A stretch of 64,000 nucleotides of DNA from Terriglobia bacterium (GTDB lineage Bacteria; Acidobacteriota; Terriglobia; UBA7540): assembly GCA_035946625.1 (NCBI GenBank), contig DASYZE010000042.1, positions 7,065 through 71,064 of the forward strand, given 5' to 3'. The position numbers and the translations under genes were made by a program. Below, piece by piece: positions 15,628 to 61,753 of this stretch (within the stretch, counting starts at the first letter, position 1; each line of letters starts with the position of its first letter). The notes under the pieces are model-generated. The model ran no database searches and had not been told where the DNA came from. It saw only the letters and a list, made by a program, of their open reading frames with translations.

Positions 15628-16109
15628 CGGAAAAGATTATTCCGCGAAGCCAAGTTTCGAACCTTGGTGACCGATTACGGGGCGAGGGTCGTCGCATAGT
15701 ATTTGCCAACGGCTGTTTTGACATACTGCACGTTGGCCACGTTCGTTACCTTCAGGGCGCAAAGAACCAGGGAGACGTGCTGGTGGTGGGCGTGAATAGT
15801 GACCGGACGGTGCGGGAACTCAAAGGCCCCGGCCGTCCCTTGCTGGAAGCCGGAGCGCGTGCGGAGCTCGTGGCGGCGCTCGAATCCGTGGACTTTGTTG
15901 TGATTTTCGACGATTCGACCGCGGTAGGAGTCCTGCGGGACCTGCGTCCCCAAGTGCATTGCAAGGGAACTGATTATACCGAGCAGACGGTCCCGGAGCG
16001 CGAAGTGATGGAGGGTTTGGGAGGAACTGTGCGCATTGTTGGCGATCCCAAGGACCATTCCACGCGCGAGGTTTTGTCTGGAATCATCCAGAGGTATCAA
16101 AAGCATTGA
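15624..16109 (+). CDS. hldC: D-glycero-beta-D-manno-heptose-1-phosphate adenylyltransferase (RfaE domain II as a stand-alone protein)
   Basis: Cytidylyltransferase fold motif IVFANGCFDILHVGHVRYL...VVGVNSD. Confidence 0.85.
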   Translation: MTEKIIPRSQVSNLGDRLRGEGRRIVFANGCFDILHVGHVRYLQGAKNQGDVLVVGVNSDRTVRELKGPGRPLLEAGARAELVAALESVDFVVIFDDSTAVGVLRDLRPQVHCKGTDYTEQTVPEREVMEGLGGTVRIVGDPKDHSTREVLSGIIQRYQKH

Positions 16110-16261
16110 GTGATGGGGTGATTGCATCATCGTACGATTGAGGGATAACCTTCGAAATTCGGAAATCGAGAGCTGAACATTCAAGAACAGGTTTCCAGGT
16201 TCATTTTTCCTCCGTCTTCCATTCGCCCATTCACCCAATTGCAATATTACCCCATCGCTCA
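16107..16261. repeat. inverted repeat bracketing the hldC|waaC spacer
   Basis: 16107-16126 tgagtgatggggtgattgca versus 16240-16261 tgcaatattaccccatcgctca (reverse complement with 2 small mismatches). The left arm contains the hldC stop; the right arm ends 1 nt before the waaC ATG. Confidence 0.8.
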
Positions 16262-17314
16262 ATGCCTATGCGTTTTTTAATCATCCGCCTCAGCTCCATC
16301 GGTGACATTGTCCACGCCCTGCCGGCCGCTACGGCCCTGGCCCGGACATTCCCCGACGCTGAAGTCGATTGGGTCGTCGAGGCTCGTCACGCCGCCTTGC
16401 TCGAGGGTAACCCCTGGGTGAAGCGGGTGGTGAAGCTCGACACGCTGGGCTGGCGCAACAACCTCTCTTCAGCAACAGTGATCGAAGAGGTGGCACGTGG
16501 TATGGCCCTACTTCGCCAAGAAAACTACGACGCTACGCTGGATTTCCAGGGACTGATAAAATCCGCAATTATTTCCAGGTTCAGCCGCTCGCCACGGAGG
16601 CTTGGGTTTGCGGAGCATTGGCTGCGGGAGCCTGCTGCCGGAATCTTTTATGATGAGCGCGTGTCGCCGCGCCATCGCCGTCACATTATCGAAATAAACT
16701 TTTCCCTGGTCGAGCACCTGGGCGCCCGCAATCCCGGCCCGGAGAAATGGGAATTCCCTTTACCCCGGACCCAGCCAGATGATGCCTATATTGAAGAGCA
16801 ACTTGCATGTTTCGGAGCCAAGGAGTTTATGGTGATGAATCCGGGTGGCGGATGGCAGGCCAAGCGTTGGGCGCCCCGGCAATACGCGGAACTTATTCGC
16901 AGCCTTGAACCGGAGTTCGGGGGGAAAATATTTATCACCGGATCGCCGGAAGAAGAGGGGTTGATCCATGAGATTCTGAGCCTCGCAAATTCACGGCGGG
17001 CGCATTACTTCCCTTCCACCCTCGTCCAGCTTATTGCCCTCGTCAGGCATGCGCAGCTCTTCCTAAGCGGAGACACCGGTCCGCTGCATCTGGCCGCTGC
17101 TGTCCGCACCCCCATCGTTGCCATTTTTGGAACCACGGACCCTTTGAACACGCCTGGGCGCAATGGGCCATTTATTCCGGCGGACATTACACTCTCGAAC
17201 GGGGGCCCGCTTTCATCCTGGCGTGAAACCAAAGCGCCGCATTACATCGAGGGTGTTACAACGGAGAATGTGTTAACGGCTGTCCGAGAACGCATGGCGA
17301 GGGCGCATGTCTGA
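16262..17314 (+). CDS. waaC: LPS heptosyltransferase (GT9, WaaC-like)
   Basis: MRFLIIRLSSIGDIVHALPA N-terminus and GDTGPLHLAAA motif (GT9). Confidence 0.75.
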   Translation: MPMRFLIIRLSSIGDIVHALPAATALARTFPDAEVDWVVEARHAALLEGNPWVKRVVKLDTLGWRNNLSSATVIEEVARGMALLRQENYDATLDFQGLIKSAIISRFSRSPRRLGFAEHWLREPAAGIFYDERVSPRHRRHIIEINFSLVEHLGARNPGPEKWEFPLPRTQPDDAYIEEQLACFGAKEFMVMNPGGGWQAKRWAPRQYAELIRSLEPEFGGKIFITGSPEEEGLIHEILSLANSRRAHYFPSTLVQLIALVRHAQLFLSGDTGPLHLAAAVRTPIVAIFGTTDPLNTPGRNGPFIPADITLSNGGPLSSWRETKAPHYIEGVTTENVLTAVRERMARAHV

Positions 17315-19816: not shown

Positions 19817-22467
19817 GTGTGAACGGAGATCGAGGCTCCTTGCATCTCAACCGTCACTGCGCCGCGGACGTCCGTCCCGAACACTTGGGCCCCTGAAGTC
19901 CTGAGCCTGTCGAGCACGTCCAGGCTCGCCGTTTTCAAGCGGTTCCCGGCTTCGTTGTTCACTACGGCAACCAGCGGCGATACGCGATCCACAAACCTCG
20001 ATGCAGAAGAAGTTCTGGAGTCATCGAGTGCCACGCCCAATGTGTGGCTGGTGAGCGCGGAACCCGAAAGCAACAAGGCCCGCTCCACATTGTCGCTAAT
20101 GCCTCCGGATAACAAAACACTGGCCTCTCCGCTCGAAATCCGGAGGACCAGCGCATTGTCGTGGGACGGAGTGCGAGTTGAAGACCCCATACCGGAGTTT
20201 GCAGGCGGCCAAAGTGTGGAAATCGACGTTATTCCCCGCTCGAATCGGTCTCCGGCGGCCAACTCTCGCGTCCTGATTCCGTGTTGTCGAACCTCCTCCA
20301 GTAAGTCACGATAGGAGTCCGTGAGCTGATTCTTTCCGTGCCAGAATTCTCCCACGTCGAAATTGCGGATCAGCGAGCCCAAACCACCAAGGTGTTCCTG
20401 GCGGGAGTCAGTCAAGACAAGAACGTCAATTCGGTCGATACCTCGCGACCACAAGTAGGGTGAAACAATGTCTTCTCCGGGATCCCAACGCCGCCCAGGA
20501 AAGTGGCCGGCTTGAGCACCCATGGTGCGTCTGCCTCCAGCGTCCATCAATAGCGTGGTCCGATCGGGCAGCACCACAAAAATCGCGTCGCCTCCGCCAC
20601 AGTCGAGTGAAGTCACTTCCAGGACTCCACCGGGAATTTGAGGCGCAAAGGGATGAAGAGAAATCAAAGTGGCAAATACAAGTTGTCCCGTCATGGAAGT
20701 CCAGAAGAGGCGCGGCTTGCGCCCCAAGGTCAATGCCGCGATGACGACGGATATCACGAACCCCCAAGCGACCCACGCGGGAGGTTCCGAGACCCGAAAA
20801 GATAACCAGGCCGGCAGCGAGGGCCAGTCGGTTAAAGAAAAAAGGCACTTCATAATGAGATCCACCAGTTTGGCCGGCCAGGCTGCGAGGGATGGCGCTA
20901 TGGTGCCCAGTAATACCGTGGGGATGGCCGTTGCCAGAAGTAACACCATCACCGGAATCGCCAGCGCGTTCAGCCCTATTCCAGAAATCGCGACGCGATG
21001 GAAAGTCATCGCCATCGGAAGCAACAAACCAATCTGGAGAATGGCGGAAAACAACAAAATGTTTCCGGTCCACAGTGCCAACCTGATGGGAGCCGTTACG
21101 GCCAATGATGCGACAGCCGGATGCCGCTTGGTGAGCCCGACTCGCTCCTTCAGACCTAAAATCAATGCTCTTAAATCAAGGCGAAATTGTACCTGGCCCG
21201 GCTTAAAACTGAAATCCAGGCCAGCCTCCTCGATCCTCCCAAGGGCGCGCCAGTAAGGTTCAGTGGTAAGCATGAGGATGGGAACGGCCAATCCCACAAT
21301 CAGCAGCGCCGCGGCGAATGACAATTCAAACTCTGTTTCGAAGAGCCACGCCGGGCGGTAAAGCAACAGGGCCAAAGCGGCCAGCCCGACGGCGTTCAAA
21401 GCCCCGTGTTCGCGGTAGAGGAGGCGGGCGACAAGATAAACGAAAATCATCAGCAACGCACGCAGAGTGGACGCGCGCTGTTCCACCAGCAGCGAATAAG
21501 CAAGCAGGAATGCCAGAAGAAGAGCCACTCTCCAGGTTTGCCTCAGTGGTGTGCGGCGGAGCAGGAACGCCCCGATCAAGGCCAGCAGTCCGATATGAAG
21601 ACCGGCGATCACAAGCAAATGGTAAAGCCCGGTCTTACGAAAATTGTCAATCGTATCGGAATCGAGCGACGTTCGTTCCCCCAACAGCACGGCTTTCAGA
21701 ACCGCCCCGTCACGCATTTCCCCCGACCACGGCGGATAAAGGGTATCAATCGATCGGATCAAACGCTGGCGGGCCTTCTCCAAAAGCTTGGAGAACCCTG
21801 CACGCTTGTTGCCCGCAAGTTTTTCCACCAGGTGAGGATTCTTGATCGTCCCCAGCCAGTAAACGTCTTCCACGGATTGCAAATAATGGCGAAAATCAAA
21901 GCTGCCGGGATTTCGGTAAACCCGGGGCTTCTGCAACCAGACGAGGGCGCGAATTCCGTCCCCCCTTTGAAGGTGTAGCGCGTTGATGGCGGGCCACGCC
22001 CCGGAATCTCCTGAAGCCTCCAGGCGCACCCGAATGATGCCCGTCCAGGGACGGAGTTCATTGCCCCTCCCGGCGCTTCTTACCTCAATGCTCTTCGCGC
22101 CCAAATCGAATTGAATCCCGTAACGAGTGTGAAAAGGAATCGAGGCCAAAACACCTTCCATTCGCACCGGGTCGGCCAAATCTATCCCCGATGAATCGAG
22201 ATATCGGACGTGGTTGATTGGAAATCGGGCTTCAAACAGGAAAGACGCGGCTGCGCCGGCGACCCCAAATCCGATCAGGGCGAACAAAAGCGAAGGGAAG
22301 TACTTACTTGCCCGCAAAAGCGCGAGACCGGGAATCAAACAAATTCCCGCGATAGCAAGAAGGTATGAGACCGCTTGGATTATTTCGCCGGCGGACCGAC
22401 CTTCAGGGTGGGCTGACAAAATTCCCAGAGCGAAACAACCCGCCAGAACCAGCAAAGGACTTCGCAT
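19792..22467 (-). CDS. comEC: DNA internalisation competence protein ComEC/Rec2
   Basis: 891 aa with an N-terminal TM/OB region, the polytopic Competence domain (GLYHLLVIAGLHIG), and a C-terminal metallo-beta-lactamase-like domain (LDCGGGDAIFV). Confidence 0.85.
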   Translation of the reverse strand: MRSPLLVLAGCFALGILSAHPEGRSAGEIIQAVSYLLAIAGICLIPGLALLRASKYFPSLLFALIGFGVAGAAASFLFEARFPINHVRYLDSSGIDLADPVRMEGVLASIPFHTRYGIQFDLGAKSIEVRSAGRGNELRPWTGIIRVRLEASGDSGAWPAINALHLQRGDGIRALVWLQKPRVYRNPGSFDFRHYLQSVEDVYWLGTIKNPHLVEKLAGNKRAGFSKLLEKARQRLIRSIDTLYPPWSGEMRDGAVLKAVLLGERTSLDSDTIDNFRKTGLYHLLVIAGLHIGLLALIGAFLLRRTPLRQTWRVALLLAFLLAYSLLVEQRASTLRALLMIFVYLVARLLYREHGALNAVGLAALALLLYRPAWLFETEFELSFAAALLIVGLAVPILMLTTEPYWRALGRIEEAGLDFSFKPGQVQFRLDLRALILGLKERVGLTKRHPAVASLAVTAPIRLALWTGNILLFSAILQIGLLLPMAMTFHRVAISGIGLNALAIPVMVLLLATAIPTVLLGTIAPSLAAWPAKLVDLIMKCLFSLTDWPSLPAWLSFRVSEPPAWVAWGFVISVVIAALTLGRKPRLFWTSMTGQLVFATLISLHPFAPQIPGGVLEVTSLDCGGGDAIFVVLPDRTTLLMDAGGRRTMGAQAGHFPGRRWDPGEDIVSPYLWSRGIDRIDVLVLTDSRQEHLGGLGSLIRNFDVGEFWHGKNQLTDSYRDLLEEVRQHGIRTRELAAGDRFERGITSISTLWPPANSGMGSSTRTPSHDNALVLRISSGEASVLLSGGISDNVERALLLSGSALTSHTLGVALDDSRTSSASRFVDRVSPLVAVVNNEAGNRLKTASLDVLDRLRTSGAQVFGTDVRGAVTVEMQGASISVHTYRTSLAD

Positions 22468-22646
22468 GGAAAAGGTGACTCCCTTCGTGTTCCGCCCGGT
22501 GTGGGAAGCTGAAACAACTCCCTGCTTTCATCGGTTAAGCAATGTAGCTACAATACTCAGATGATACACAACGCTGTTTGGCGTCATGTTTGTGGATGGC
22601 GCAAAAGTGCCTGGGTGGGAGCAAGCGGTGATGATCACCGGAGATG

Positions 22647-23924
22647 CTAGGTTTTCTGTGCGGAGAGCTTGGCCACGCATTCAATATGGTAAGTCTGCGG
22701 AAAGAAATCAAACAGCTCGACCGAATTCAATACGTACCCCCGGGCGATCAGAAATCCAAGGTCACGAGCCAGGGTGGGTGGATGGCAACTGGCGTAATGG
22801 ATTCGGCGGGGCTGGATTGCGGTGATGAATTTGAGGGTGTCTGATCCAACGCCCGCGCGCGGAGGGTCAATCACCACCAAGTCCGGCCCCGAGCGGGCGT
22901 ACCGGCGCAAGAAATCAAATGCCGTATCCGCCACGGCGCGGACGTTTTGAAGCGAATGCGCCTTGGCGTTCGCCGCCAGGTCCGCTGCCGCCGCTTGGCT
23001 GGCTTCCACGCCCACCACCTCGTCAAACTGCCGCGCCAGGGGGAGCGAAAACAAACCCACCCCTGCGAAAAGGTCGAGGGCAACCCCGCCCCGCTCTCCC
23101 GCCGTGGTCGAGCCCACGAATTCCGGGAGCAGAAAACGCGACGACTGAAAGAACGAGCCGGGGCTGACTCGATATTCAAAATCTCCCACCCGATATTCCA
23201 GGGCCGGCGCGCCAAAAGTCCGCAAGCCGCTGCCATCGTCGATGACCACGCTGGCTATACTCTTGCAGCCAGCCAAAACATCCGTCGCCAGGGCCTCTCC
23301 GGTTTGCGCGCTGAAACTTCCACAAAAAGTGACCATCGCGCGCTTGTCACAGTCGTCGGCGAGCATTTCGATTTCCCGGCAACCCGCCAGAAGTGCTGAG
23401 CACCTGGGCTGGCGCAGTTCGGCCAGAATCGCATTGAGACAAGGTGAAAGAATCGGGCAATTGTCGATGGGTACGTGCTGGTGAGACTCAGCTTCAAAAA
23501 ATCCCAACTGGGCGTGCCCGTCAGGCAATACGGCCACTTTGATTTGAGCCTGGTTGCGATAGTTCCATGGATTTGCGACGTGGGTTGGAATTTCGGACGC
23601 CCAGAATATCTTCCCGATGCGCCGGAGCGTTTCGCGCAGAATTTCGCGCTTCGTCGCCACCTGATTCTCCGGAGCAAAATGTTGGTACTGGCAGCCTCCG
23701 CAACTCCCAAAGTAAGGGCAAGGGGGATCAATGCGTTCGGGCGCCTCCGCGAGAATTCGTAATGGGCGGGCGTGCACCACGCCCTTGGCGGCACGAACTT
23801 CTTCAACTTCCAGGCGTTCGCCGGGCAACGCTCGCGGAACAAAGATCGCCCGCCCGTGGTGATGCCCGAGCGCGTCGCCTCCGAAGACGAGTTTTTCCGC
23901 CGAGAATTCAAAGGGCTGGCTCAT
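22647..23924 (-). CDS. rlmD: 23S rRNA (uracil-C5)-methyltransferase, RlmD/RumA family
   Basis: N-terminal TRAM-like segment, 4-Cys cluster CPYFGSCGGCQYQH, SAM motif LDLFAGVGLFS, and a C-terminal DPPRAG...SC catalytic motif. Confidence 0.75.
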   Translation of the reverse strand: MSQPFEFSAEKLVFGGDALGHHHGRAIFVPRALPGERLEVEEVRAAKGVVHARPLRILAEAPERIDPPCPYFGSCGGCQYQHFAPENQVATKREILRETLRRIGKIFWASEIPTHVANPWNYRNQAQIKVAVLPDGHAQLGFFEAESHQHVPIDNCPILSPCLNAILAELRQPRCSALLAGCREIEMLADDCDKRAMVTFCGSFSAQTGEALATDVLAGCKSIASVVIDDGSGLRTFGAPALEYRVGDFEYRVSPGSFFQSSRFLLPEFVGSTTAGERGGVALDLFAGVGLFSLPLARQFDEVVGVEASQAAAADLAANAKAHSLQNVRAVADTAFDFLRRYARSGPDLVVIDPPRAGVGSDTLKFITAIQPRRIHYASCHPPTLARDLGFLIARGYVLNSVELFDFFPQTYHIECVAKLSAQKT

Positions 23925-23951
23925 GGACCTTCCAAATCCGTTTCGGTGATT

Positions 23952-24662
23952 TCACAAATAGAAAAGACTGAGGCGCGGCACGGCATAGTGTTCGTATAAC
24001 CGCTTTTTAAGAAACTGGCGCCCCAGGGATTCAATTTGCGGCGCCGTCATTTTCTGGCGGTAGCTCACCAGGCCCCGGTCCACTTCCTTCCGCACTTCGG
24101 TAAGAAGGTCGGTGGACGCGGCCCGGGTCAGTGCAGCCGTCAGTTTTTCTTCCAGCGCCGAGAGTCGTTGCTCCAGATCTTCCAAATCGGTGGAAAACTC
24201 TCCGCGCAACGCGATTTCACAAATCGCCTTTGCGACCTCTTGAAGATCCTCTGCCAGGACCCGCGCGCGCTTCGCATGGCAGTGGGCCGACGCCTTCTCC
24301 AAAGCCTCTGCACTCTGATTGAGGTGGGCTAGAATTTCCTCCGCTGCAAAGGGAGCTTTTTCAGGCGGGCGGTGCGCGGCAGGTGCGCCGCTTTCCACCT
24401 GGGCAGTGTTCAACTCTGCGGCCGCCTGGAGCACAGCCTGGGAACAATAAGCGAGTCCGTTAATTTTTCGGAATCGCTGCGGGCGTTTGGAAAACTTCTG
24501 AAAGGCGCGCTCGATGCCAGTCAGTACGGCCTCCAGCGGGATGCCCGCTTCCTTCCAGGATTCAACTAGCGCCCAGTCCAGAGTGGAAAGTAGGGTGGGA
24601 GTTCCCCGGCACCGGCGAAAACACTCCTCGATTTCCGTAAAGTAGTTGAAGTAGTTGTCCAA
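23952..24662 (-). CDS. hypothetical protein (236 aa), helical
   Basis: TTG start. The N-terminal about 80 aa (MDNYFNYFTEIEECFRRCRG...WKEAGIPLEAV) looks like a small helical or winged-helix-like domain followed by a coiled region. No family recognised. Confidence 0.5.
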   Translation of the reverse strand: MDNYFNYFTEIEECFRRCRGTPTLLSTLDWALVESWKEAGIPLEAVLTGIERAFQKFSKRPQRFRKINGLAYCSQAVLQAAAELNTAQVESGAPAAHRPPEKAPFAAEEILAHLNQSAEALEKASAHCHAKRARVLAEDLQEVAKAICEIALRGEFSTDLEDLEQRLSALEEKLTAALTRAASTDLLTEVRKEVDRGLVSYRQKMTAPQIESLGRQFLKKRLYEHYAVPRLSLFYL

Positions 24663-24678
24663 CGCGCAATCACAAGGC

Positions 24679-24818
24679 GGAGGGAAGTAGTACTTCCGTA
24701 CTTCAGTTCATCAGTATTTCAGTTCTTCAGTGGGTCAGTCTAAATTCTGTTACGCGATTCTCACGACTCATAATTTCTTTACCGGGCAACTGAAATACTG
24801 ACCTACCTCCTTCCCTCC
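24679..24818. repeat. inverted word-repeats bracketing the coaX|hypothetical spacer
   Basis: Perfect 13-nt IR: cagtatttcagtt (24712-24724) and aactgaaatactg (24788-24800). Outer pair: ggagggaagtag (24679-24690) and ctacctccttccctcc (24803-24818). The left half stutters on the word (a/c)ttcagt. Confidence 0.85.
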
Positions 24819-25640
24819 TTACCTCTGGCTCCCGGCTCCTGGCTTCTGCCTTCTTTCTTCCGCATTCCTCTCGTAAATTATTCGCAAGCCTTCCAGCGTC
24901 AAAGACGCCTCAACCGGCGGTTTGTACCTGGACGCGCCTGCCACTAGAGGAGCTTGTCCACCGGTGGCAATCACTTTGGTCTTCTTTCCCAAATCATGGC
25001 AGAGACGATCCAGGACGCCGTCCACCAAACCCACGGCGCCGTAAAACAGACCTGACTGCATGCTGCTGACGGTGTTGGTTCCGATTACGTGACGGGGTTC
25101 GCGAATTTCCACCCGGGGCAGGCGCGCCGCCCTCTGGAAAAGCGCTTCCGCCGAGATCCCGATGCCCGGCGCAATGACACCTCCAAGGTATTCACCTTTT
25201 TCTGACACCACGTCGAAGGTGATGGCGGTGCCAAAATCGACGATGACGCAGGGACCGCCATATTTCTCAAAAGCGGCCACGCCATTGGCAATGCGATCCG
25301 CGCCCACTTCCAGAGGATTGTCATAGTGGATCGCCATCCCCGTGCGGACGCCCGGTTCGAGGAAAAAGGCCTTGAGACGAAAATATTTCTGCGCCATCTC
25401 CTCCAGGAGCGTATTGAGCGGCGGAACTACGCTCGCCACCATGATGGCGGAAATCTGATCCGCTTGAATCCCCTCGAGCGAAAACAGGTTGCGGATCAGG
25501 ATTCCATACTCATCGGCAGTTTGGGCGCGGTTGGTGGTCAATCGCCATTGGGCGAGAAGAGCCTTGTCCTTAAAAACGCCCAGCACAGTGTTGGTATTTC
25601 CGACGTCGATCACCAGAAGATTTGTGTTTGGATTGGCCAT
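24819..25640 (-). CDS. coaX: type III pantothenate kinase
   Basis: LLVIDVGNTNTVLGVF, GADRIAN and VDFGTAITFD motifs of CoaX. Confidence 0.9.
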   Translation of the reverse strand: MANPNTNLLVIDVGNTNTVLGVFKDKALLAQWRLTTNRAQTADEYGILIRNLFSLEGIQADQISAIMVASVVPPLNTLLEEMAQKYFRLKAFFLEPGVRTGMAIHYDNPLEVGADRIANGVAAFEKYGGPCVIVDFGTAITFDVVSEKGEYLGGVIAPGIGISAEALFQRAARLPRVEIREPRHVIGTNTVSSMQSGLFYGAVGLVDGVLDRLCHDLGKKTKVIATGGQAPLVAGASRYKPPVEASLTLEGLRIIYERNAEERRQKPGAGSQR

Positions 25641-25785
25641 AACTGAAATCAGCAGGTGGTAGGTTGTAGCTGGAATGTGGGGAAATCCTGATCGTTATGG
25701 CTTGGGGCTGCGGATGACTTCGGGTTGCAATAGCTATTCTGGAAACTTTTCCCCCCCTGCCCAATGCCCCCACCTACTACCTACC
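25641..25785. repeat. inverted word-repeats bracketing the birA|coaX spacer
   Basis: aactgaaatcagcaggtggtaggttgtagctggaatgtgg (25641-25680) versus cacctactacctacc (25771-25785). The right arm overlaps the birA stop. Confidence 0.75.
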
Positions 25786-26776
25786 GCCTCACCTCCGTAA
25801 TTTCTCCTGAAACCAATAGTTCTTCCCTTCCGTCCTCGCGGCGGATGCGAAGCATTCCAGTGGGATCAAGTCCCGCCGTGACGGCCTGGAAATCCTCGTC
25901 GCTCGTCCGCACTCGGACGGTCTTCCCTTCCGCGAAAGTCGAAGCTTTGGCCCAGGCGCGGACAATCGGCGCGTTGCCTTCGTCTTTCAGCAACCCGTAA
26001 TATCTCTCCAATTCTTTCAACAAGCTCAACGCAATTTGTGTCCGGGAGTAGCTTCTTTTCCCTTCCATGCGCAAAGACGTGGCAATCGCCCCCAGTTCCG
26101 AGGGCATGGTTCTGTTGTTCACGTTCACGCCAATTCCCAAAACGACGTGGTGCAAGCGGCCCAGTTCGGCGTTCATTTCGGTAAGAATACCGCAAACTTT
26201 TTTGCCATTCACCAGCAAATCGTTGGGCCAGCGAATGTCAACCTCAAGTCCGGTGGCTGTGGATACTGCACGATGGGCCGCCACGCCCGCCATCAAAGTG
26301 AGTGCCGGTGCGTCGGCGGGCGAAAGTTTCGGACGCAGGATGACCGAGGCATAGATGCCACTGGATTTTTCTGAATACCACTTTCGTCCGAAGCGGCCCC
26401 GGCCCGCCGTTTGCTCTTCCGCCAGCACCACGGTCCCGTCTGCCGCTCCGTCAGTGGCCAGCGCCAGGGCAGTGTTATTGGTCGAGTCGATTCGGAAATA
26501 ATGAATGATTTTGCGCCCGATTTCATTGTCGCCCAGCTCCGGTTGTATCAGGCTGGGCGCCAGAATGTCCGGTAGGGTGCGGAGTTGGTAGCCGCTTGAC
26601 GTATGCCCCTGAATGTCAACGCCCAGCGCGCGCAGCTTTCCAACGTACTTCCAAACCGTAGAACGCGTCACCCCAATCTGGGAGGCGATTTTGGGGCCGG
26701 GCAACACTACTGTCGCATTCTTCACCAGCACAGAAATCAACTTGTCCATGCGGCGGTCAGTGGCAGCGGCACCCAT
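25781..26776 (-). CDS. birA: bifunctional biotin--[acetyl-CoA-carboxylase] ligase / biotin operon repressor
   Basis: N-terminal HTH (SQIGVTRSTVWKYV), the GRGRFGRKW biotin-binding loop, and a C-terminal SH3-like domain. Confidence 0.9.
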   Translation of the reverse strand: MGAAATDRRMDKLISVLVKNATVVLPGPKIASQIGVTRSTVWKYVGKLRALGVDIQGHTSSGYQLRTLPDILAPSLIQPELGDNEIGRKIIHYFRIDSTNNTALALATDGAADGTVVLAEEQTAGRGRFGRKWYSEKSSGIYASVILRPKLSPADAPALTLMAGVAAHRAVSTATGLEVDIRWPNDLLVNGKKVCGILTEMNAELGRLHHVVLGIGVNVNNRTMPSELGAIATSLRMEGKRSYSRTQIALSLLKELERYYGLLKDEGNAPIVRAWAKASTFAEGKTVRVRTSDEDFQAVTAGLDPTGMLRIRREDGREELLVSGEITEVRR

Positions 26777-26882
26777 AGGGTTTCAACGGTCGATGGGATA
26801 AGTAATAAATACTAGCGACTCCGAGCCGGCGATTACATCCATTATCCTGTTTCTAATCCAAACGCACATGCAAAGGTTGCTT

Positions 26883-27004
26883 GCCCCCTCACCCTCATCC
26901 CCTCTCTCGCCGCGGCGACCGAGGGGAGATATGAAACCAAAGATCATGGCCTTCGCTCCCTTGGGGAGAGGGTGTTCCGCCGGGGCGGGACCGGTGAGGG
27001 GTGC
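26883..27004. repeat. composite imperfect palindrome (REP-like) between valS and birA
   Basis: gccccctcaccctcatcccctctc ... gaggggag ... ggggagaggg ... ggtgaggggtgc. Outer (cccctcaccc/ggtgagggg) and inner (cccctctc/ggggagagg) arms are complementary. Confidence 0.7.
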
Positions 27005-27068
27005 TTAACAAACTTCTCACAATTTAACTTTCTTGGTCACGTTTGTATTAGCTACGATTTTCCATTTG

Positions 27069-31832: not shown

Positions 31833-31946
31833 CCTTTGAGTTTATAGTTGAAAGTCGAAAGTGAATAGTCAAAAACAACAGCAGGTAAGCTTTTGGGGCA
31901 CCCGAATCCTTCACAGTATCTGACGCGGCGAAAATCCTGGACTGCT

Positions 31947-44509: not shown

Positions 44510-44530
44510 ACCATGACCTCAAGTCTCGAA

Positions 44531-45547: not shown

Positions 45548-45563
45548 TGAATCTCCTCAAGAC

Positions 45564-45736
45564 TAATGACGAGAGATGAGTGACGAGCATGGACCGGAAG
45601 CTTTTGGTGTTCGCCGATCAATGCGTTACCTTCACACGTTTGCTTCTCGAAATTACTGACTTAAAAAGCCTGGCTCTGTTGGGTAAAGGTGTTTTCTTAT
45701 TTCCTGCCCGTCACTTGTCACTCTTCACTGGTCACT
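45564..45736. repeat. inverted word-repeats bracketing the Rieske|cyt b spacer
   Basis: aatgacgagagatgagtgacgag (45564-45586) versus cgtcacttgtcactcttcactggtcactg (45708-45736). Confidence 0.75.
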
Positions 45737-45743
45737 GCTTTTC

Positions 45744-46442
45744 CTACACCGGGATGAACGCACCCGGATCGTTGAATTCGTCCCGGCCGCCTTTGCTGCG
45801 ATCCCACATAAAAAGTATGCTTTTGTCCGCGATGATCTGGCCCTGGGCGTTCAACTCAACGTGCGCGCGGTCCATGGGCCGAGGGGCCGGCCCTTCAAAA
45901 TTGATTCCTTCCGGGGTATAGCCGCTGCCGTGGCAGGGGCACTTGAATTTGTTTTCAGCCGGCTTCCAGTCCGGCGTGCAGCCGAGGTGCGTGCACTTGG
46001 CGAAAATGGCAAAAATCTGAGTGGGTTCCCTCACCACGTAAATGCGGCACTCTTGCTTGAACCGGTCGCTGACTCCGAGCACGTAATCGGACGGGTAGCC
46101 AAGATTGCAAATGTTGCTGGGCTCAAAGAGGGCGCGCGGGAAAAAGAACCGGAGGAACATCAGGAAATTCGCGGCCAGGAATGCCGCCATGCACGCCCAG
46201 GTCAGGCGACGGCGCAATTGATTGGGGTCAGGCTCTGTGGTTTCCTTCGCCGGGGCGGCTGCGGGCGCCGCAGGTTTGGGTGCCGGGGGAGTGGTGGCTT
46301 TCGCTGCCGCTGCTGGAGGAGCCGCCGGCTTGGCGGTTGCAGGTGCGGCGGATTTTTCCACCGGCTTCGCCGCCCCAGTCCCCGCTGCTGCAGCGGGGAG
46401 TTTTGAAGGAACTGGGGCGCTCGGATCTTCAGGATTCGACAT
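45744..46442 (-). CDS. Rieske [2Fe-2S] protein of the bc-type complex
   Basis: CTHLGCTPDW...CPCHGSGY cluster boxes. RRR-containing leader plus TM helix, preceded by an Ala/Pro/Lys-rich extension of about 75 aa. Confidence 0.9.
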   Translation of the reverse strand: MSNPEDPSAPVPSKLPAAAAGTGAAKPVEKSAAPATAKPAAPPAAAAKATTPPAPKPAAPAAAPAKETTEPDPNQLRRRLTWACMAAFLAANFLMFLRFFFPRALFEPSNICNLGYPSDYVLGVSDRFKQECRIYVVREPTQIFAIFAKCTHLGCTPDWKPAENKFKCPCHGSGYTPEGINFEGPAPRPMDRAHVELNAQGQIIADKSILFMWDRSKGGRDEFNDPGAFIPV

Positions 46443-46817: not shown

Positions 46818-47174
46818 CTATTTTGCCGACCGATGCAGAATGACGCGCACTTTTTCCAGAGTAATCATGCCCCCTCCCAGCATTTCGTCGAGCTTGGGAA
46901 GAATTTTCTCAATGCGCTCGGAATATTCGACCACCTCGACCACGATGGGCAAATCCTGAGAGAGGCGCAAAATGGCCGTGGTGTGGAACGGGTGCTGGCC
47001 CAGGCTGGAAGAACCGTACCCACCCACCCCGCGCAGGACGGTCACCCCATAAAAACTCTCGGCGCGGAAAAGATCCACCAAAGCCTTGTACAGGGGTTTG
47101 CCTTCCCAATTGTCGGCTTCGCCAAAATGAATCCGCATCAAGGTGCGTTCGCCTTCGAATCTTTGGTGCTCCAT
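46818..47174 (-). CDS. DUF190 (PII-like) protein, CrcB-associated
   Basis: LMRIHFGEADNWEGKPLYKALVDLFR...GVTVLRGVGGYG is the DUF190 core. Immediately downstream of crcB. Confidence 0.75.
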   Translation of the reverse strand: MEHQRFEGERTLMRIHFGEADNWEGKPLYKALVDLFRAESFYGVTVLRGVGGYGSSSLGQHPFHTTAILRLSQDLPIVVEVVEYSERIEKILPKLDEMLGGGMITLEKVRVILHRSAK

Positions 47175-47183
47175 CGTCTCCTC

Positions 47184-47555
47184 CTACATCCGGTCCGCCA
47201 AAACCATTCCGATGCGAAGCAACAGAAGTCCGCCGACCATGCTCGTGCAAACGTAGATGCCGGCCTTCATCCACTCGCCGTCTTGTAACAGATGCACGGT
47301 CTCCCAGCCAAAGCTTGAGAAAGTTGTAAAAGCGCCAAAAAAACCGATGGTGAGCCCAATGCGCCACTCGGGGGGAAAAGAAATATGATTGAGCGCGTAT
47401 TGTCCCACGCCCCCCAGAAGGAAACATCCCAAAAGGTTCACCACCAAAGTGCCGCTGGGAAATCCAGGGCCGGTGCGAGACTGCACCAAACCCTGAAGTC
47501 CGTAGCGGGCCAGTGTTCCGGCAATTCCAAAAACAATCAACAGAGTAATTTGCAA
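47184..47555 (-). CDS. crcB: fluoride ion channel CrcB/FluC
   Basis: 123 aa with 4 TM helices. GIAGTLARY and GAFTTFSSF motifs. TTG start with a GGAAGG SD. Confidence 0.9.
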   Translation of the reverse strand: MQITLLIVFGIAGTLARYGLQGLVQSRTGPGFPSGTLVVNLLGCFLLGGVGQYALNHISFPPEWRIGLTIGFFGAFTTFSSFGWETVHLLQDGEWMKAGIYVCTSMVGGLLLLRIGMVLADRM

Positions 47556-47590
47556 GTTGTCCCTTCCTTCTGCCTGTGCTCACACCCAAC

Positions 47591-47625
47591 AAAAAAACTC
47601 CTGGGCGCTCACCAGTGGCCAGGAG
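47591..47625 (-). terminator. intrinsic terminator forming the expression platform of the fluoride riboswitch
   Basis: Minus strand CUCCUGGCCACUGGUGAGCGCCCAGGAG followed by U7. The 5' arm reuses the aptamer 3' pseudoknot strand. Confidence 0.75.
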
Positions 47626-47672
47626 TTATCAGTCCCGCCAGGCGGGACGGTTTTGGCGAACTCCATCGCCTT
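47617..47672 (-). promoter_or_regulatory. fluoride riboswitch aptamer (crcB motif)
   Basis: Minus strand reads AGGCGAUGGAGUUCGCCAAAACCGUCCCGCCUGGCGGGACUGAUAACUCCUGGCC. It matches the GGCGAUGGxGUUCGCC ... CUxAUxAxxCCU consensus, including the GGAG/CUCC pseudoknot. Confidence 0.85.
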
Positions 47673-47782
47673 CAAATTTTAATCTTACCACAGACACTGC
47701 CCAAGCATCGGGCCGCACCACGGCCCATGTCTTGCGCAATTGAATTCCCACCGCATGCTGCACTAAGATGGGTGAGCACAAC

Positions 47783-52180: not shown

Positions 52181-52200
52181 CGTCAGTAGACGTCAGTAGA
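52181..52200. repeat. tandem 10-mer cgtcagtaga x2
   Basis: cgtcagtagacgtcagtaga followed by the degenerate cggacgttca. Lies between tRNA-Arg and the citrate synthase gene. Confidence 0.8.
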
Positions 52201-52219
52201 CGGACGTTCAGCCGGTCGG

Positions 52220-52314
52220 GGAGCGCGGGCGTCCCGCCCGCTTTTCCAAAGTTCGGAGTTGAAGGCTATGATTTACGGCGAAGAAAGTAAGAGCGGGCGG
52301 GATGCCCGCGCTCC
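52220..52314. repeat. inverted pair of GC-rich hairpin units upstream of citrate synthase
   Basis: ggagcgcgggcgtcccgcccgctt (52220-52243) versus gagcgggcgggatgcccgcgctcc (52291-52314). Near-perfect reverse complements 47 nt apart; each unit is also self-complementary. Confidence 0.8.
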
Positions 52315-52418
52315 CAGGGAAACGCGAAGGCTTCTTGTTTTGCGATGTGGGCATCGTGTATGATGTGCCTTCAAAAAATTCCGGCTGAGCTCACATGGGG
52401 GAGCGGGGGAGCGCGCGG

Positions 52419-54709: not shown

Positions 54710-54712
54710 AGC

Positions 54713-54810
54713 AGGATGATGAAGGCTGAATGCTGAATTAAGGCGAAATTATGACCTTGACTTGTCTGGATTCGGATTCATGGTTCATCGTTCCGCCTTC
54801 ATCATTTCCT
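54713..54810. repeat. inverted word-repeats bracketing the yqeY|OPT spacer
   Basis: aggatgatgaaggctgaatgctgaat (54713-54738) versus attcggattcatggttcatcgttccgccttcatcatttcct (54770-54810). The word is (g/a)atgatgaa. Confidence 0.8.
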
Positions 54811-54826
54811 GGAAGAGGCTGAGATC

Positions 54827-56950: not shown

Positions 56951-57052
56951 AAAAAAATGATGAACGCAGAATGATGAATTAAAAAGGCGGGAGCAACTTT
57001 AGGGGGTAAGGTTTGTTGCTTAACATTCAACATTTATTCATTTTTTTCCGCC
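56951..57052. repeat. A-tract / imperfect inverted word-repeat / T-tract between convergent genes
   Basis: aaaaaaatgatgaacgcagaatgatgaattaaaaagg (56951-) versus ttaacattcaacatttattcatttttttcc (-57050). Possible bidirectional terminator. Shares aatgatgaatt with the reverse complement of 34661-34679. Confidence 0.6.
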
Positions 57053-57070
57053 TGCCAATTCTCTCCGGCC

Positions 57071-57910: not shown

Positions 57911-58032
57911 TTCCTCAATATGCAAAATCCAGGGAGTACTTACCGACTGCTAAGCCCATCTTGCACAAATGAAGGGCCTGATGCAACTATATTCACGCAA
58001 GACCTTCCTCAATTCCAATTGCATTGTGGGTG

Positions 58033-58052
58033 GATTCCCGCTTTCGCGGGAA
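58033..58052. repeat. short GC hairpin attcccgc-tttc-gcgggaat
   Basis: Perfect 8-bp stem with a 4-nt loop in the PilZ3|rhomboid divergent spacer. Looks like widely dispersed REP-type hairpins. Confidence 0.6.
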
Positions 58053-58148
58053 TGACAGCACTTGGGAACGCGCCCATCTTGCGAATGACACGTCTACCGG
58101 GACGGCCAAGTCCGTTGGCCGTGCTCGCAGGGCTGTGATAGGCTGTGA

Positions 58149-58910
58149 ATGATGTCGTATCGTCAACAAGGTTCCATTTCGTTCGGCCCGCCGCTTACTG
58201 GAGTGGTGAAGTATCTCATTATTTCTACTTCCGCCGTCTTTTTGCTGACCTTTCTTCCCGCCCAATTGTTCCACTGGGACTATCCCAATTTGTACTTCAG
58301 CCTCATCCCCTATGCCGTCACCCACTTTGTTCCGCTGGCGGGTGGCTTGCGGCTGCCCTACATCTGGCAGCCCGTCACCTACCTTTTTCTTCACGGCGGG
58401 TGGTTTCACATCATCTTCAACCTCTTTGCCCTTTGGATGTTTGGCGCAGACCTTGAACGCCTGTGGGGTCCACGCCAATTTTTGTTTTATTTTTTCCTTA
58501 CAGGAATCGGCGCGGGACTTTTTGACGTGCTGCTTCAACCGAACGCCACCATCCCCACCATCGGAAACTCGGGTGCGATTTACGGGATTCTTCTCGCCTA
58601 CGGCGTCCTCTTTCCTGACCGTCCGATATTTCTCTGGATGATCATCCCCATCAAGGCGAAATGGTTTGTGGTGATCATGGGCGCGATTGAATTCGTTAGT
58701 TCGTTGAGCGGGCCGGGCACCGGGGTTGCTCACGTGGCCCACCTGGGCGGCATGTTGTTTGGCTACCTCTATCTGCGCGGGGGAGGGATGCCTTACCGGT
58801 GGCAGCTCAAATATCATGAGTGGCGGCGCGCACGGCTGCGCAGGAAATTTGAAGTCTATATGACCAAGCAAGACAAGAAGAAGGATCAACACGGGCCGTG
58901 GATCAATTAG
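58149..58910 (+). CDS. rhomboid family intramembrane serine protease
   Basis: GNSGAIYGIL (catalytic Ser) and HVAHLGGMLFG (catalytic His) motifs, WQPVTYLFLHGGWFH, and 6 TM helices. Confidence 0.85.
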   Translation: MMSYRQQGSISFGPPLTGVVKYLIISTSAVFLLTFLPAQLFHWDYPNLYFSLIPYAVTHFVPLAGGLRLPYIWQPVTYLFLHGGWFHIIFNLFALWMFGADLERLWGPRQFLFYFFLTGIGAGLFDVLLQPNATIPTIGNSGAIYGILLAYGVLFPDRPIFLWMIIPIKAKWFVVIMGAIEFVSSLSGPGTGVAHVAHLGGMLFGYLYLRGGGMPYRWQLKYHEWRRARLRRKFEVYMTKQDKKKDQHGPWIN

Positions 58911-58911
58911 G

Positions 58912-58951
58912 AATTGGTGATTGGTGATTTGTGATTGGTGATTTGCGATTG
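58912..58951. repeat. stuttering direct word repeat ggtgatt(t)g x5
   Basis: aattggtgattggtgatttgtgattggtgatttgcgattg. Its reverse complement shares caatcgcaaatc with 38436-38447. Confidence 0.8.
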
Positions 58952-59069
58952 AAGAGCAGGGCGCAAGTTCGAGATTGGTTTTTGCAAAAGGGTGCCTTGA
59001 CACTCGCTCCGCTGGATGCTAGTTTGTTTTCGTTCAATCGTTCTTTGAAATTTCATGTTCCTGCGGTGA

Positions 59070-59252
59070 TCCCGATTTCGCTTCGCGAGGTCGGGAATAA
59101 AAGGAAAGGCCGTGAAAATCGGCCGCGGTCCCGCCACTGTGATCGGCGAGCCGAATCCTCGAATGCAGAAATGCAGGCCACTGTCCGTCGACTGACGGAT
59201 GGGAAGGCTGAGGATGAGGCGATAACCCGAAAGCCAGGAAGCCTGCCCGGGA
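59070..59252 (+). promoter_or_regulatory. cobalamin (B12) riboswitch
   Basis: GGGAAUAAAAGGAAAGGCCGUGAAAAUCGGCCGCGGUCCCGCCACUGUGA core, GGCCACUG...GGGAAGGC extension, and B12 box AGCCAGGAAGCCUGCC (59232-59247). Boundaries approximate. Confidence 0.8.
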
Positions 59253-59416
59253 ACTCTCACTCAACCTAACTCTTCGGCGGAAAGAGTCCTGGGGAAGCGA
59301 CCACGCCTCCCGATTCCGATTCGATGGATTGGGGGGCGTTTTGTTTTCCTGCCCCGATTCTTCCGGAACTCCTTCTGCCGTCAACCACCCGTCGAGTGAA
59401 CGGGAAGGAGATCCAA

Positions 59417-61753
59417 ATGAAGCCAGAAGTCAGAAGATCGAAACCAGAAGTCAGGAGTCAGAAGTCAGGAGTCAGAAGCCGAAGGCCGGAAATCTCCCGA
59501 CCTCCTTGTTACTTCCAAAAAGGTATCAATGTATTCCTCACTGCCTTGTTTCTGCTCTGTGGAGCGGGCGCGTGGGCTGCGACGATCCAGGGAACCGTTC
59601 TTGATCCGGGAGGACGCCCGGTCGCGCGGGCGAAAGTCAGTTTGCTCGCGTCACGCATTGCCATTGAGCAACGCGAGACCGATTCAAAAGGTGAATATCG
59701 GTTTGAAGGATTGAAAGCGGGAGCGTACACCCTGGTCTCCAACGCGCCGGGCCTTTCCGCCACGGCAAGCGACTTGCGAATCCAGGCCGACGAGAGTCGG
59801 AAGGCAGATTTGCATCTCGAGATCAGCGCCGTGCAGCAACACGTGGTGGTTTCGGCCTCGCTGGGAGGAGCGCTCGCTCCGGAAATCGGGTCATCGGTGA
59901 GCGTGGTTACCCGCCAGGAAATGGATGACCGCGACGCGCAGTCCGTTCTCGACGTCCTGAGTGGCGTGCCCGGCGTGGCAGTGAACCAGACAGGACGGCG
60001 CGGCGGCGTGACCGGAGTCTTCATCCGAGGCGGCAATTCCAATTACAATCTGGTGATGATCGACGGGATCCCGTTGAACGAGTTTGGCGGAGATTTCGAT
60101 TTTGCGCCGCTGCCCGCCGATGGCGTGGACCACGTGGAGATCACTCGAGGGCCCGAGAGCGCCCTCTATGGCTCCAATGCCGTGACCGGCGTCATCAACA
60201 TTGTCACCCGGCAGGGCGAGGGGCCGCCGCACTTTACCGTCCTGGCGGAAGGCGGCAGCTTTGACACGGGGCGCGCGGCGGCCAGCGGCAGCGGCCTCAC
60301 CCACGGTGTGGGTTGGGCAGTGGACCTTTCAAGGCTCGATTCGGGCGGGGTGGTGACCAATGACCGGTACCGAAACCAGTCCGCGTTCCTCAGCCTTGGA
60401 TATGCGCGCAATCCGCGCCGCCAGATCAATTTCCATTTCTTCGGCAACGCGAATGATGCCGGCGCGCCCGGCCCCTACGGGTCCGACCCCGATCAACTTT
60501 TTACGGGTATTGATACTGTCTCGCGCGACAAACAAAACATGTTCGGGTATGAGGGCAGTTACGCCGAACAATTCTCCCCGCGCTTCCGCCAGGTGGTGAG
60601 CCTGAGTGCGGCCACTAACGATTACTATTTCAAGTCGCCCTTTGGCGATTCCTATTCCAACAATCTGCGCGGCGTGTTGAACACACAAAGCGAGTTGACT
60701 CTCTCGAGCAAGGATTTTTTAGTGGCAGGTTTTGAATACAACCGCGAGCAGACGAAGAACACTTACATCGCTGATGCTAACAACACGCCGTTTCTCCTGC
60801 CGCGAACCAGCCTGGCTTATTTCGTCGAGAACCGGTGGAGCCCCACTCGGCGCCTGTTTGTGACCACCGGAGTGCGCGCGGACGATCTTCGCACTCACTC
60901 GCTTCCGGCGGACGCCTTCGGCTCGCGGCCATTCCTCCCCGCAACTTCAATTGTAAAAATTAATCCGCGAACCTCGGTGGCCTACCTGGTGCGGGAAGGG
61001 ACGGCTGGAAATAGGTTGGGCGCCACGCGCCTGCATTCGAGCTTTGGCACCGGCATCCGCGCCGCCAACGGATTCGAGTTGGCGTTCACCAACAATCCGC
61101 GCTTGAAGCCCGAGAAAAGCATCAGTTTCGACGCGGGAGTCGAGCAGAGATTCTTTTCCAACCGCGCCGTGCTGGACGCGACTTACTTTTACAATCGCTT
61201 CGAGGATCAAATTGTTGTCCTAGGCGGCTCGTTGACCAATCTCAGCACGTTCACCTCCGCGAACCTGGGCAACGCTCGCGCGCAGGGCGCGGAGCTATCC
61301 TTCCGACTCCAACCCACACGTTCATTACAAATCGAAACTGTATACACGCTGCTCGACAGCTCCATCCTGGCGCTTGAGAATGCCAGCGTCGCTTTGTCCC
61401 CTTTCCATGTGGGCCAAGCTCTGGTGAGGCGACCCAGGAACTCTGCTTTCTATAACGTCACCTGGCAGCGCGGCCGGCTGATGCTCAATACCGACGCCTA
61501 TATTCGCGGGCAGGAGCTTGACCTCGAACCCAATGACGGCACCTTCGCGTGCACCCTCGGACTCCCTTGTTTTTTCAATAACAAAGGTTACACGCGGGCC
61601 GACGCTGGATTCGCCTACCGGTTGCCGGGCGGGGTTGAAATTTATGGGCGAGTGAACAATTTCTTGAATCACAAATATGAGGAATCTTTTGGATTCCCTT
61701 CCCTTCGTCTGAATTTTATTGCCGGACTGAAATTTACCTTCCCCTGGGAATAG
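59417..61753 (+). CDS. TonB-dependent receptor with N-terminal CarboxypepD_reg domain (probable corrinoid receptor)
   Basis: SD GAAGGAG lies 6 nt before ATG 59417. TIQGTVLDPGGRPV (CarboxypepD_reg), plug domain (VSVVTRQEMDDR, GVAVNQTG, IRGG), C-terminal beta-barrel ending in F-x-W. Sits behind the B12 riboswitch. Confidence 0.85.
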   Translation: MKPEVRRSKPEVRSQKSGVRSRRPEISRPPCYFQKGINVFLTALFLLCGAGAWAATIQGTVLDPGGRPVARAKVSLLASRIAIEQRETDSKGEYRFEGLKAGAYTLVSNAPGLSATASDLRIQADESRKADLHLEISAVQQHVVVSASLGGALAPEIGSSVSVVTRQEMDDRDAQSVLDVLSGVPGVAVNQTGRRGGVTGVFIRGGNSNYNLVMIDGIPLNEFGGDFDFAPLPADGVDHVEITRGPESALYGSNAVTGVINIVTRQGEGPPHFTVLAEGGSFDTGRAAASGSGLTHGVGWAVDLSRLDSGGVVTNDRYRNQSAFLSLGYARNPRRQINFHFFGNANDAGAPGPYGSDPDQLFTGIDTVSRDKQNMFGYEGSYAEQFSPRFRQVVSLSAATNDYYFKSPFGDSYSNNLRGVLNTQSELTLSSKDFLVAGFEYNREQTKNTYIADANNTPFLLPRTSLAYFVENRWSPTRRLFVTTGVRADDLRTHSLPADAFGSRPFLPATSIVKINPRTSVAYLVREGTAGNRLGATRLHSSFGTGIRAANGFELAFTNNPRLKPEKSISFDAGVEQRFFSNRAVLDATYFYNRFEDQIVVLGGSLTNLSTFTSANLGNARAQGAELSFRLQPTRSLQIETVYTLLDSSILALENASVALSPFHVGQALVRRPRNSAFYNVTWQRGRLMLNTDAYIRGQELDLEPNDGTFACTLGLPCFFNNKGYTRADAGFAYRLPGGVEIYGRVNNFLNHKYEESFGFPSLRLNFIAGLKFTFPWE
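59421..59485. repeat. stuttering word repeat (c)agaagtcag(g) inside the 5' end of the receptor CDS
   Basis: agccagaagtcagaagatcgaaaccagaagtcaggagtcagaagtcaggagtcagaagccgaagg. Translated as PEVRRSKPEVRSQKSGVRSRRPE. Confidence 0.8.

Follow-up and report, generated by a model that had tools for sequence, protein, structure and literature searches.

Reports of 7-nt tandem repeats between bacterial genes go back to 1990, under the name short tandemly repeated repetitive (STRR) sequences. We analysed a 64-kb stretch of a Terriglobia bacterium (phylum Acidobacteriota; contig DASYZE010000042.1, positions 7,065 to 71,064), here called the window, which has 57% G+C and housekeeping gene content and in which an earlier note had pointed to short words recurring at distant intergenic sites. 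These words are fragments of tandem repeats whose unit is mostly 7 nt long, more rarely 8 or 14 nt, and whose complete form is a pair of inverted arrays filling the space between the stop codon of one gene and the Shine-Dalgarno sequence of the next. Our best reading, to which we give a probability of roughly 0.6, is that they are slippage-built, STRR-like intercistronic RNA hairpins that act in cis in polycistronic mRNA.

The units of STRR1-3, from heterocystous cyanobacteria, are CCCCAGT, TTGGTCA and CAACAGT, none of which is among the consensus units reported for the window by Tandem Repeats Finder (TRF); since the host is also an acidobacterium, the elements are analogues of STRR1-3 and not members. 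Like the cyanobacterial repeats, they have 7-bp tandem units, lie between genes and comprise several unit families per genome (PMC2670836; PMC4692102), here with one coding exception (59419-59478) and with families that differ between lineages. They can also form a hairpin between co-transcribed genes, as does the STRR hairpin between hupS and hupL of Nostoc/Anabaena, for which a role in transcript stability or translational coupling was suggested (PMC2670836). Unlike STRRs, they occur in another phylum with other unit sequences, their arrays are short (3–5 units) and often degenerate, and they typically take the form of an inverted pair that extends from the stop codon to the Shine-Dalgarno sequence. 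Heptameric repeats in general are reported to be enriched between bacterial genes (Mrazek 2007, cited in PMC4692102), among them GGGAATC of Xanthomonas and GGGGA(T/C)T of Nostoc, which include some inverted pairs and vary in length and sequence between close species at the same gaps (PMC4692102); those repeats use one G-rich, quadruplex-prone unit per genus, whereas here there are many unrelated units and no requirement for G-tracts. In the Beggiatoaceae, TAACTGA arrays lie a few nucleotides upstream of start codons and translational regulation has been proposed (PMC4679880), but they have a single unit and are nearly always direct (1 inverted set in 170), in contrast to the inverted pairs and many units found here. 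In Haemophilus influenzae hmw1A, an (ATCTTTC)n repeat forms one arm of a hairpin in the 5′ untranslated region, and RNase III cleavage raises expression (PMC12721329). The elements described here likewise place a heptamer repeat of variable unit number in the arm of a long hairpin by a gene start, with predicted stems of 20–35 bp ending 8–37 nt before start codons; hmw1A differs in being a single contingency locus with at least 10 units and a non-repeat, G-rich partner arm, whereas here both arms are repeat arrays, they occupy many housekeeping operon gaps, and processing by RNase III is something we infer. A full-text literature search found no account of such repeats in Acidobacteria.

Repetitive extragenic palindromic (REP) sequences and bacterial interspersed mosaic elements (BIMEs) may influence the stability and translation of mRNA as RNA hairpins. 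Found in enterobacteria and pseudomonads and associated with REP-associated tyrosine transposases (RAYTs), they resemble our elements as extragenic palindromes in operons, often just past stop codons (PMC3733652). They have one conserved 20–40-bp consensus, a GTAG or CGTC tag, high copy number, short loops and no 7-nt periodicity, a profile that we did not find in the window: each unit family has 2–4 loci in its 64 kb with similarity limited to 19–26 nt of repeat units, and GTAG lies within the GGTAGGT and AGTAGAC units, not in other families and not at a fixed end. Miniature inverted-repeat transposable elements (MITEs) do not fit on the features tested either, for the arms are inverted repeats but the loops cannot be aligned from copy to copy or among close relatives. 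The earlier note's suggestion of a REP/MITE-like family with a common sequence is thus not supported, as copies share the repeat unit only. Target-site duplications were not obvious in the gaps compared, although no systematic search for them was made. In Rfam 15, the window hairpins matched no covariance model above its gathering score or at the E-value threshold; the Rfam matches in the window are a cobalamin riboswitch, a fluoride riboswitch and tRNA-Arg only.

The comparison set comprised the window and 61 acidobacterial loci, with 104 kb of intergenic and 1059 kb of coding sequence; close relatives were obtained by a metagenome scan with COX2. TRF resolved the word sites into short arrays of period 7, sometimes 8 or 14. 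There were 53 period-7 arrays in intergenic DNA and 12 in coding DNA, a density about 45-fold higher between genes. Period 7 was also the more frequent intergenic period (n = 53 vs n = 16 for period 8), whereas arrays in coding DNA instead showed periods of 6, 9, 12 and 15. Within the window, 16 repeat loci lie in 6.6 kb of intergenic DNA and 22 in 57.4 kb of coding DNA, heptamer-type repeats occupy about one third of the intergenic gaps of this genome, and at least eight different units are present; every relative has its own set.

A complete element consists of two arrays with complementary units, inverted relative to each other. Array pairs were inverted in 22 cases and direct in 2, with 18 of the 22 inverted pairs between co-directional genes, and nine further array pairs were found. 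In + + pairs, the first arm mostly starts no more than about 8 nt from the upstream stop codon and the second mostly ends 8–37 nt before the downstream start codon, so that a stem of 20–35 bp loops out the rest of the spacer, a non-conserved loop of 13–150 nt. This design is seen more cleanly in relatives than in the window, as in one locus (L016) that reads ...AAA TGA ACGTGAACCGTGAACCGTAAACCGTGA - loop - TCACGGTTCACGGTTTACGGTTTACG AGAGGAG N8 ATG. Arrays were present in 41 of 363 co-directional gaps and in 11 of 189 convergent or divergent ones, about a twofold difference. The two arms also differ in composition: in 28 of 34 hairpins a G-rich first arm is followed by a G-poor second arm (72 vs 21 NTG triplets), an asymmetry of order that does not depend on the strand call and that would keep spurious Shine-Dalgarno-like and start triplets clear of the real start. 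We rejected the idea that the heptamers supply stop codons in three frames, as 11 first arms and 8 second arms carried stops in all three, which is not a significant excess. What defines the elements is the 7-nt period together with an intra-operon position that extends from stop codon to Shine-Dalgarno sequence, and neither feature was part of the earlier note's account. The arrays of the window are as follows, with z the fold score normalised by shuffling.

16098-16270, plus strand: hairpin between a CTP-transferase-like gene (stop codon 16107-16109) and a heptosyltransferase gene (ATG 16262); z −4.21, 0/200 shuffles; arms at about 16103-16126 and 16243-16265 (GAGTGATGGGGTGATTGCA / TGCAATATTACCCCATCGCTC), the stem 16103-16265 pairing both the upstream stop codon and the downstream AUG.
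24676-24825, minus strand: hairpin across the whole gap between coaX (pantothenate kinase) and the next gene; z −5.47; a period-8 array of AGTNNTTC at 24689-24739 pairs with 24785-24823, and the coaX stop codon (24819-24821) lies inside the stem base.
25641-25790, minus strand: hairpin between birA (biotin ligase) and coaX, with GGTAGGT-family arms at 25654-25680 and 25762-25789; z −2.17, borderline.
31840-31880, minus strand: unpaired period-7 array just upstream of the start of a DUF420 gene, with plus-strand units AGTTGAA AGTCGAA AGTGAAT AGTCAAA; gap 31833-31946, z +2.2.
34508-34691, minus strand: two arrays in the gap after COX4; one of the ATGAATG/ATGATGA family directly past the stop codon (34645-34691), the other a period-14 AAATCTGAGATCGG array (34525-34567) before the probable true start near 34507.
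36491-36534, minus strand: single arm of the AGAAGTC/GGAGTCA family directly past the COX1 stop codon.
38317-38455, minus strand: gap between COX2 and COX1, with an AAATCGC array past the COX2 stop codon (38429-38448) and a weak partner at 38330-38350; z +1.6.
39293-39478, minus strand: hairpin upstream of COX2 with AGTAGAC/AGTAAAC units and a 95-nt loop; z −3.0; one arm at 39437-39471, past the upstream gene's TGA, the other at 39307-39341, followed by GAGGAG and the ATG at 39292.
44510-44645, minus strand: hairpin between two cytochrome b genes, with GGTAGGT-family arms at 44613-44643 and 44532-44563; z −3.23.
45705-45743, minus strand: unpaired GTCACTG array (four units) directly past the Rieske stop codon; gap 45595-45743, z +0.27.
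52181-52202, strand unassigned: CGTCAGTAGA array of 2.2 units in the gap between tRNA-Arg and citrate synthase.
54710-54826, plus strand: hairpin between yqeY and an OPT transporter gene; z −2.88; arms at 54716-54741 (ATGATGA/ATGCTGA units) and 54784-54805.
56957-56987, plus strand: ATGATGAACGCAGAATGATGAATT array directly past the OPT stop codon, 88% identical to 54716-54741; gap 56951-57070, z +0.38.
58913-58951, plus strand: ATTGGTG array of 5.6 units, 3 nt past the rhomboid stop codon.
59419-59478, plus strand: GAAGTCA array of 8.6 units in the N-terminal coding region of a TonB-dependent receptor open reading frame (ORF).

As a class, gaps with arrays are predicted to fold far better than shuffled sequences. 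They had a mean fold z-score of −4.8, with 73% below −2, compared with a mean of −0.75 for array-free gaps. Six gaps of the window fold significantly (z −2.2 to −5.5, the heptosyltransferase gap being folded as 16095-16275 on the plus strand), hairpins of relatives reach z −2.4 to −8.5, and the stems are at least 90% Watson-Crick. In an extended, gapped count over 36 stems, mismatches compatible with G.U pairing numbered 37 on the sense strand and 16 on the antisense strand (p = 0.0055), which is suggestive of tolerance for mismatches at the RNA level; a first, ungapped count of G.U vs A.C gave 16 vs 11, which is not significant.

Several of the arrays lie in a long minus-strand respiratory operon, identified by Pfam annotation, that encodes the Rieske protein (45744-46442), cytochrome b as two genes, a 1074-aa multihaem cytochrome, a CarboxypepD_reg-domain protein, COX2, COX1, two COX3, COX4, CtaA and CtaB. 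In the hairpin gaps of this operon (31–47 kb), a scan for promoters and terminators found sites of neither kind, which fits read-through transcription; the one good promoter-like site precedes the Rieske gene. What comes after the second arm is a Shine-Dalgarno sequence, not a U-tract, and with no terminator-like site in these gaps we rejected intrinsic terminators as an explanation. An element of a distinct kind lies between tRNA-Arg and citrate synthase (52219-52315), where a G+C-rich inverted repeat of 27 bp is 93% complementary (z −7.4) and each arm is itself a terminator-like palindrome (GCGGGCGTCCCGCCCGC, then TTTT); similar GCCGGCGTCC units were seen in two other loci (L012 and L092). 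Two more G+C-rich gaps are structured and have no 7-nt periodicity, namely 35007-35124 between COX3 and COX4 (z −2.8) and 26880-27010 upstream of birA (z −2.9), both on the minus strand.

Every word cited in the earlier note is present at, or within a few bases of, the place given for it: AGGTGGTAGGT at 25654 and 44534; GGAATGTGG at 25672 and 44545, with a reverse-complement copy within COX3 at 35662; GGAGTCAGAAG at 36520(-), 59454 and 59468; CAATCGCAAATC at 38436 and 58940(-); AATGATGAATT at 56970 and 34656(-), the latter about 5 nt outside the 34661-34679 that had been claimed; and AACTGAAAT at 24788, 25641 and 24716(-), with coding copies at 1543(-) and 21207. The description of the words as almost exclusively intergenic applies to the long ones, apart from the copies at 59454 and 59468, which fall within the initial ~21 codons of the TonB-receptor ORF (ATG 59417), but not to 8–9-mers, which also occur in genes. 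As a bare k-mer statistic the recurrence of 9–12-mers does not stand, since exact words found in more than one intergenic gap are about as numerous as expected at k = 11 (7 observed, 5.5 ± 3.1 expected) and k = 12 (1 observed, 1.5 expected) and only k = 8–9 is enriched, mildly; the window contains 2320 repeated 11-mer pairs and 658 12-mer pairs, and the expectations for single words (0.00–0.8) overstate significance because they are computed as if the words had been chosen in advance. When every gap was locally aligned with every other and the result set against 60 dinucleotide shuffles, three matches did exceed the shuffles: 54716-54741 with 56957-56982 (26 nt, 88% identity), 25659-25680 with 44532-44553 (22 nt, 91%; by eye 20/20 plus one 7-nt indel) and 34649-34667 with 56969-56987 on the opposite strand (19 nt, 95%). 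By the same measure the 12-mer CAATCGCAAATC is within chance, as is GGAATGTGG alone. A vocabulary test on TRF-defined loci with column-permuted units gave one sharing pair only and had low power because TRF misses degenerate arms. The GGTAGGT and ATGATGAA/ATGCTGAATT families are shared beyond chance and recur at other gaps in close relatives, and the GGAGTCAGAAG family probably belongs with them, so the proposed small vocabulary survives as a limited set of units within the lineage, while several of the cited coincidences are no better than chance.

Relatives at different distances separate what turns over from what persists. Units of close relatives match window units with at most one mismatch in 10 of 16 arrays, about four times the 16.5% expected by chance, whereas distant acidobacteria match at the chance level (6 of 45). 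The vocabulary thus exists, but it belongs to the clade, with the same units at different gaps in different genomes. Single genomes reuse a unit as well, with CCGTGAA at three gaps of L016 and GATTTTR at three gaps of L039. Between the window and a close relative whose COX2 is 88% identical (L084), gaps of 33 nt and 51 nt are almost identical whereas hairpin gaps differ strongly, up to replacement of a whole gap: the cytochrome b hairpin is absent from the relative, and both have the one upstream of COX2, its arms partly homologous and its loops impossible to align. The gap between COX1 and COX3 holds a both-arm hairpin in the relative and the first arm only in the window (36491-36534), which would explain the unpaired arrays of the window as remnants; on this comparison they look like products of decay. 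Among the near-identical contigs L085, L086, L087 and L089, both arms vary in steps of ±7-nt units, and a hairpin of about 90 nt in L086 corresponds to a 17-nt gap in L087. Whole units, single arms or entire hairpins are thus evidently gained and lost, and a slippage process, which the earlier note gave as an alternative, is clearly involved; the note's picture of low-complexity, mostly hairpin-forming intergenic elements is likewise borne out. One junction nevertheless keeps its element: a hairpin occupies the COX2-upstream gap of the window and of 8 of 12 Blastocatellia-type loci, compared with 7 of 54 other co-directional gaps (p = 3.5e-4), and across these nine genomes the unit is different in nearly each. 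A search for strain variation in the window retrieved only a contig of 100% identity over 6.5 kb (L081, a Logan contig from run SRR12347820, matching 21819-28314), which places the source organism in that public sample. Period-14 intergenic arrays in a planctomycete (L070, a Pirellulaceae metagenome-assembled genome (MAG); 342-397 and 15515-15607) indicate that related repeats may occur outside Acidobacteriota.

The anatomy of the elements, their intergenic bias, structure, unit-wise variation, positional persistence and clade-specific units come directly from these comparisons, and the origin and action that we propose to account for them are as follows. Replication slippage would build and remodel the heptamer arrays, and arm complementarity would be kept by selection for pairing, by copying of one arm from the other, or by both. 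The elements would be transcribed within polycistronic mRNAs and act there as cis RNA hairpins through RNase III processing, stability or translational coupling: a nearly perfect stem of at least 20 bp could serve both as an RNase III substrate and as a barrier to exonucleases, and a stem abutting stop codon and ribosome-binding site could tune expression of the neighbouring cistrons or preserve their translational coupling.

Several points weigh against this account. Transcription, cleavage and expression effects of the hairpins are all things we infer. The description of the words as hairpin-forming is correct for the six gaps that fold significantly but not for four others tested (31833-31946, 38317-38455, 45595-45743 and 56951-57070), and because of these, and because hairpins present in one close relative are absent in another, most individual copies are dispensable. 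In 33 of 41 gaps the sense strand had the better raw folding energy, a bias that we rejected as a composition effect because it vanishes after dinucleotide-shuffle normalisation, which gives equal z-scores on both strands (−4.83 vs −4.67), and the G.U excess could instead reflect a transcription-linked C-to-T mutation bias. The Shine-Dalgarno sequence is outside the stem in most cases, so its simple masking cannot be general. Gene boundaries were crude ORF calls, the comparison sequences are mostly MAG or metagenome contigs in which repeats are prone to mis-assembly, and the loci compared are phylogenetically non-independent.

The alternative that survives best, though we consider it unlikely, is a neutral mutational footprint, in which slippage-prone intergenic arrays become palindromic by hairpin-templated repair and are functionless and merely tolerated. 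Polymorphism in presence and unit number between close relatives, single-arm remnants, strand-equal fold scores, the lack of three-frame stop enrichment in the first arm, and stems as strongly Watson-Crick as expected of recent templated copies all agree with it. It does not readily account for occupation of the COX2-upstream gap across nine genomes despite complete unit turnover, for the 28-to-6 asymmetry in arm order, for the 37-to-16 sense-strand G.U excess, or for arms that abut the stop codon and end shortly before the Shine-Dalgarno sequence.

A more ambitious version of an RNA-level role, which we regard as improbable, is that the hairpins are a lineage-wide translational device that pairs the stop-codon region with the sequence just upstream of the next ribosome-binding site. 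Long spacers would be folded away and the terminating ribosome handed straight to the next cistron, by termination-reinitiation or shunting across 70–180 nt; as the stems consist of slippage-prone heptamers, such a device would be self-renewing, its coupling strength retuned by ±7-nt steps.

Comparably doubtful is that these are REP/MITE-like mobile elements, hairpins with heptamer arrays as terminal inverted repeats (TIRs) copied by a transposase of RAYT or TIR-associated type encoded elsewhere. The same unit family does appear at several gaps of one genome (GGTAGGT and ATGATGA in the window, and the families of L016 and L039 given above) and at other positions in close relatives, the window and its relative L084 differ by the replacement of entire gaps, and TIR-associated tyrosine transposases are reported in Acidobacteria (PMC3733652). 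Set against this are copies that have only the repeat unit in common and loops that cannot be aligned, many small families instead of one abundant consensus, variation in whole 7-nt units, the lack of a fixed GTAG/CGTC tag, and a Pfam scan in which no transposase, RAYT included, appeared among the called ORFs of the window. Action at the DNA level, independent of transcription, through cruciform extrusion or binding of a nucleoid, replication or recombination protein, seems very unlikely: the stems are strand-symmetric and nearly perfect and arrays do occur in 11 of the 189 convergent or divergent gaps, but co-directional gaps are occupied about twice as often, placement is tied to stop codon and ribosome-binding site, the G.U excess is on the sense strand, and the many different units per genome argue against one sequence-specific binding protein. 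Chance and composition, that is, coincidences among 9–12-mers in 64 kb with AT-enriched intergenic DNA, remain the best account of individual words such as CAATCGCAAATC and agree with the chance-level occurrence of GGAATGTGG, the many repeated 11-mer pairs, the 11–12-mer sharing at expectation and the single pair in the TRF-locus test, but are scarcely credible and indeed refuted for the phenomenon as a whole by the top three inter-gap alignments, the 45-fold intergenic enrichment of period 7, the inverted pairing and structure scores, and the recurrence of window units in close relatives at about four times the chance rate.

Several of the elements have settings of their own. Cytochrome b (43568-45590, minus strand) is split into an N-terminal b/b6-like gene and a C-terminal petD-like gene, followed by the gene for the 1074-aa multihaem cytochrome c, and a heptamer hairpin is located exactly between the two halves. 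The OPT gene is flanked by direct array copies of 88% identity (54716-54741 and 56957-56982, plus strand), each just past a stop codon. The TonB-dependent receptor gene (ATG 59417, Shine-Dalgarno sequence GGAAGGAG) is preceded by a cobalamin riboswitch (59046-59264, plus strand), and its first ~21 codons are the heptamer array, translated as KPEVRRS KPEVRSQ KSGVRSR ahead of the signal peptide, a case of a repeat array tolerated within a coding N-terminus. The COX1 protein of the window has its best matches in Acidobacteriota MAGs at no more than 72% identity, and gene order around COX2 is that of Blastocatellia/Pyrinomonadaceae-type loci. Other genes recognised by Pfam include lipopolysaccharide-core genes, birA-coaX and valS. 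A fluoride riboswitch (47613-47679, minus strand) precedes crcB (47184-47555) and a DUF190 gene (46818-47174), both masked by a naive longest-ORF call (46909-47592).

For annotation, the relevance of the heptamer arrays is that they mislead ORF callers, with three calls in the window over-extended or on the wrong strand because of them. The rhomboid gene at 58149-58910 (plus strand) is real and the call at 57993-59003 (minus strand) is wrong, hence the start of the array at 58913-58951 only 3 nt past a stop codon; the gene called at 34220 probably starts near 34507; and the third case is the array at 59419-59478, which is inside the TonB-receptor ORF.

Heptamer repeats were known before, and the case described here is a well-behaved example of the class. 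This acidobacterial lineage offers a useful comparative system, with repeats inside essential respiratory and housekeeping operons, a precise geometry from stop codon to ribosome-binding site, persistence at one orthologous junction despite sequence turnover, and whole-unit variation between near-identical genomes. This combination makes RNA processing, translational coupling and neutral slippage directly testable hypotheses.

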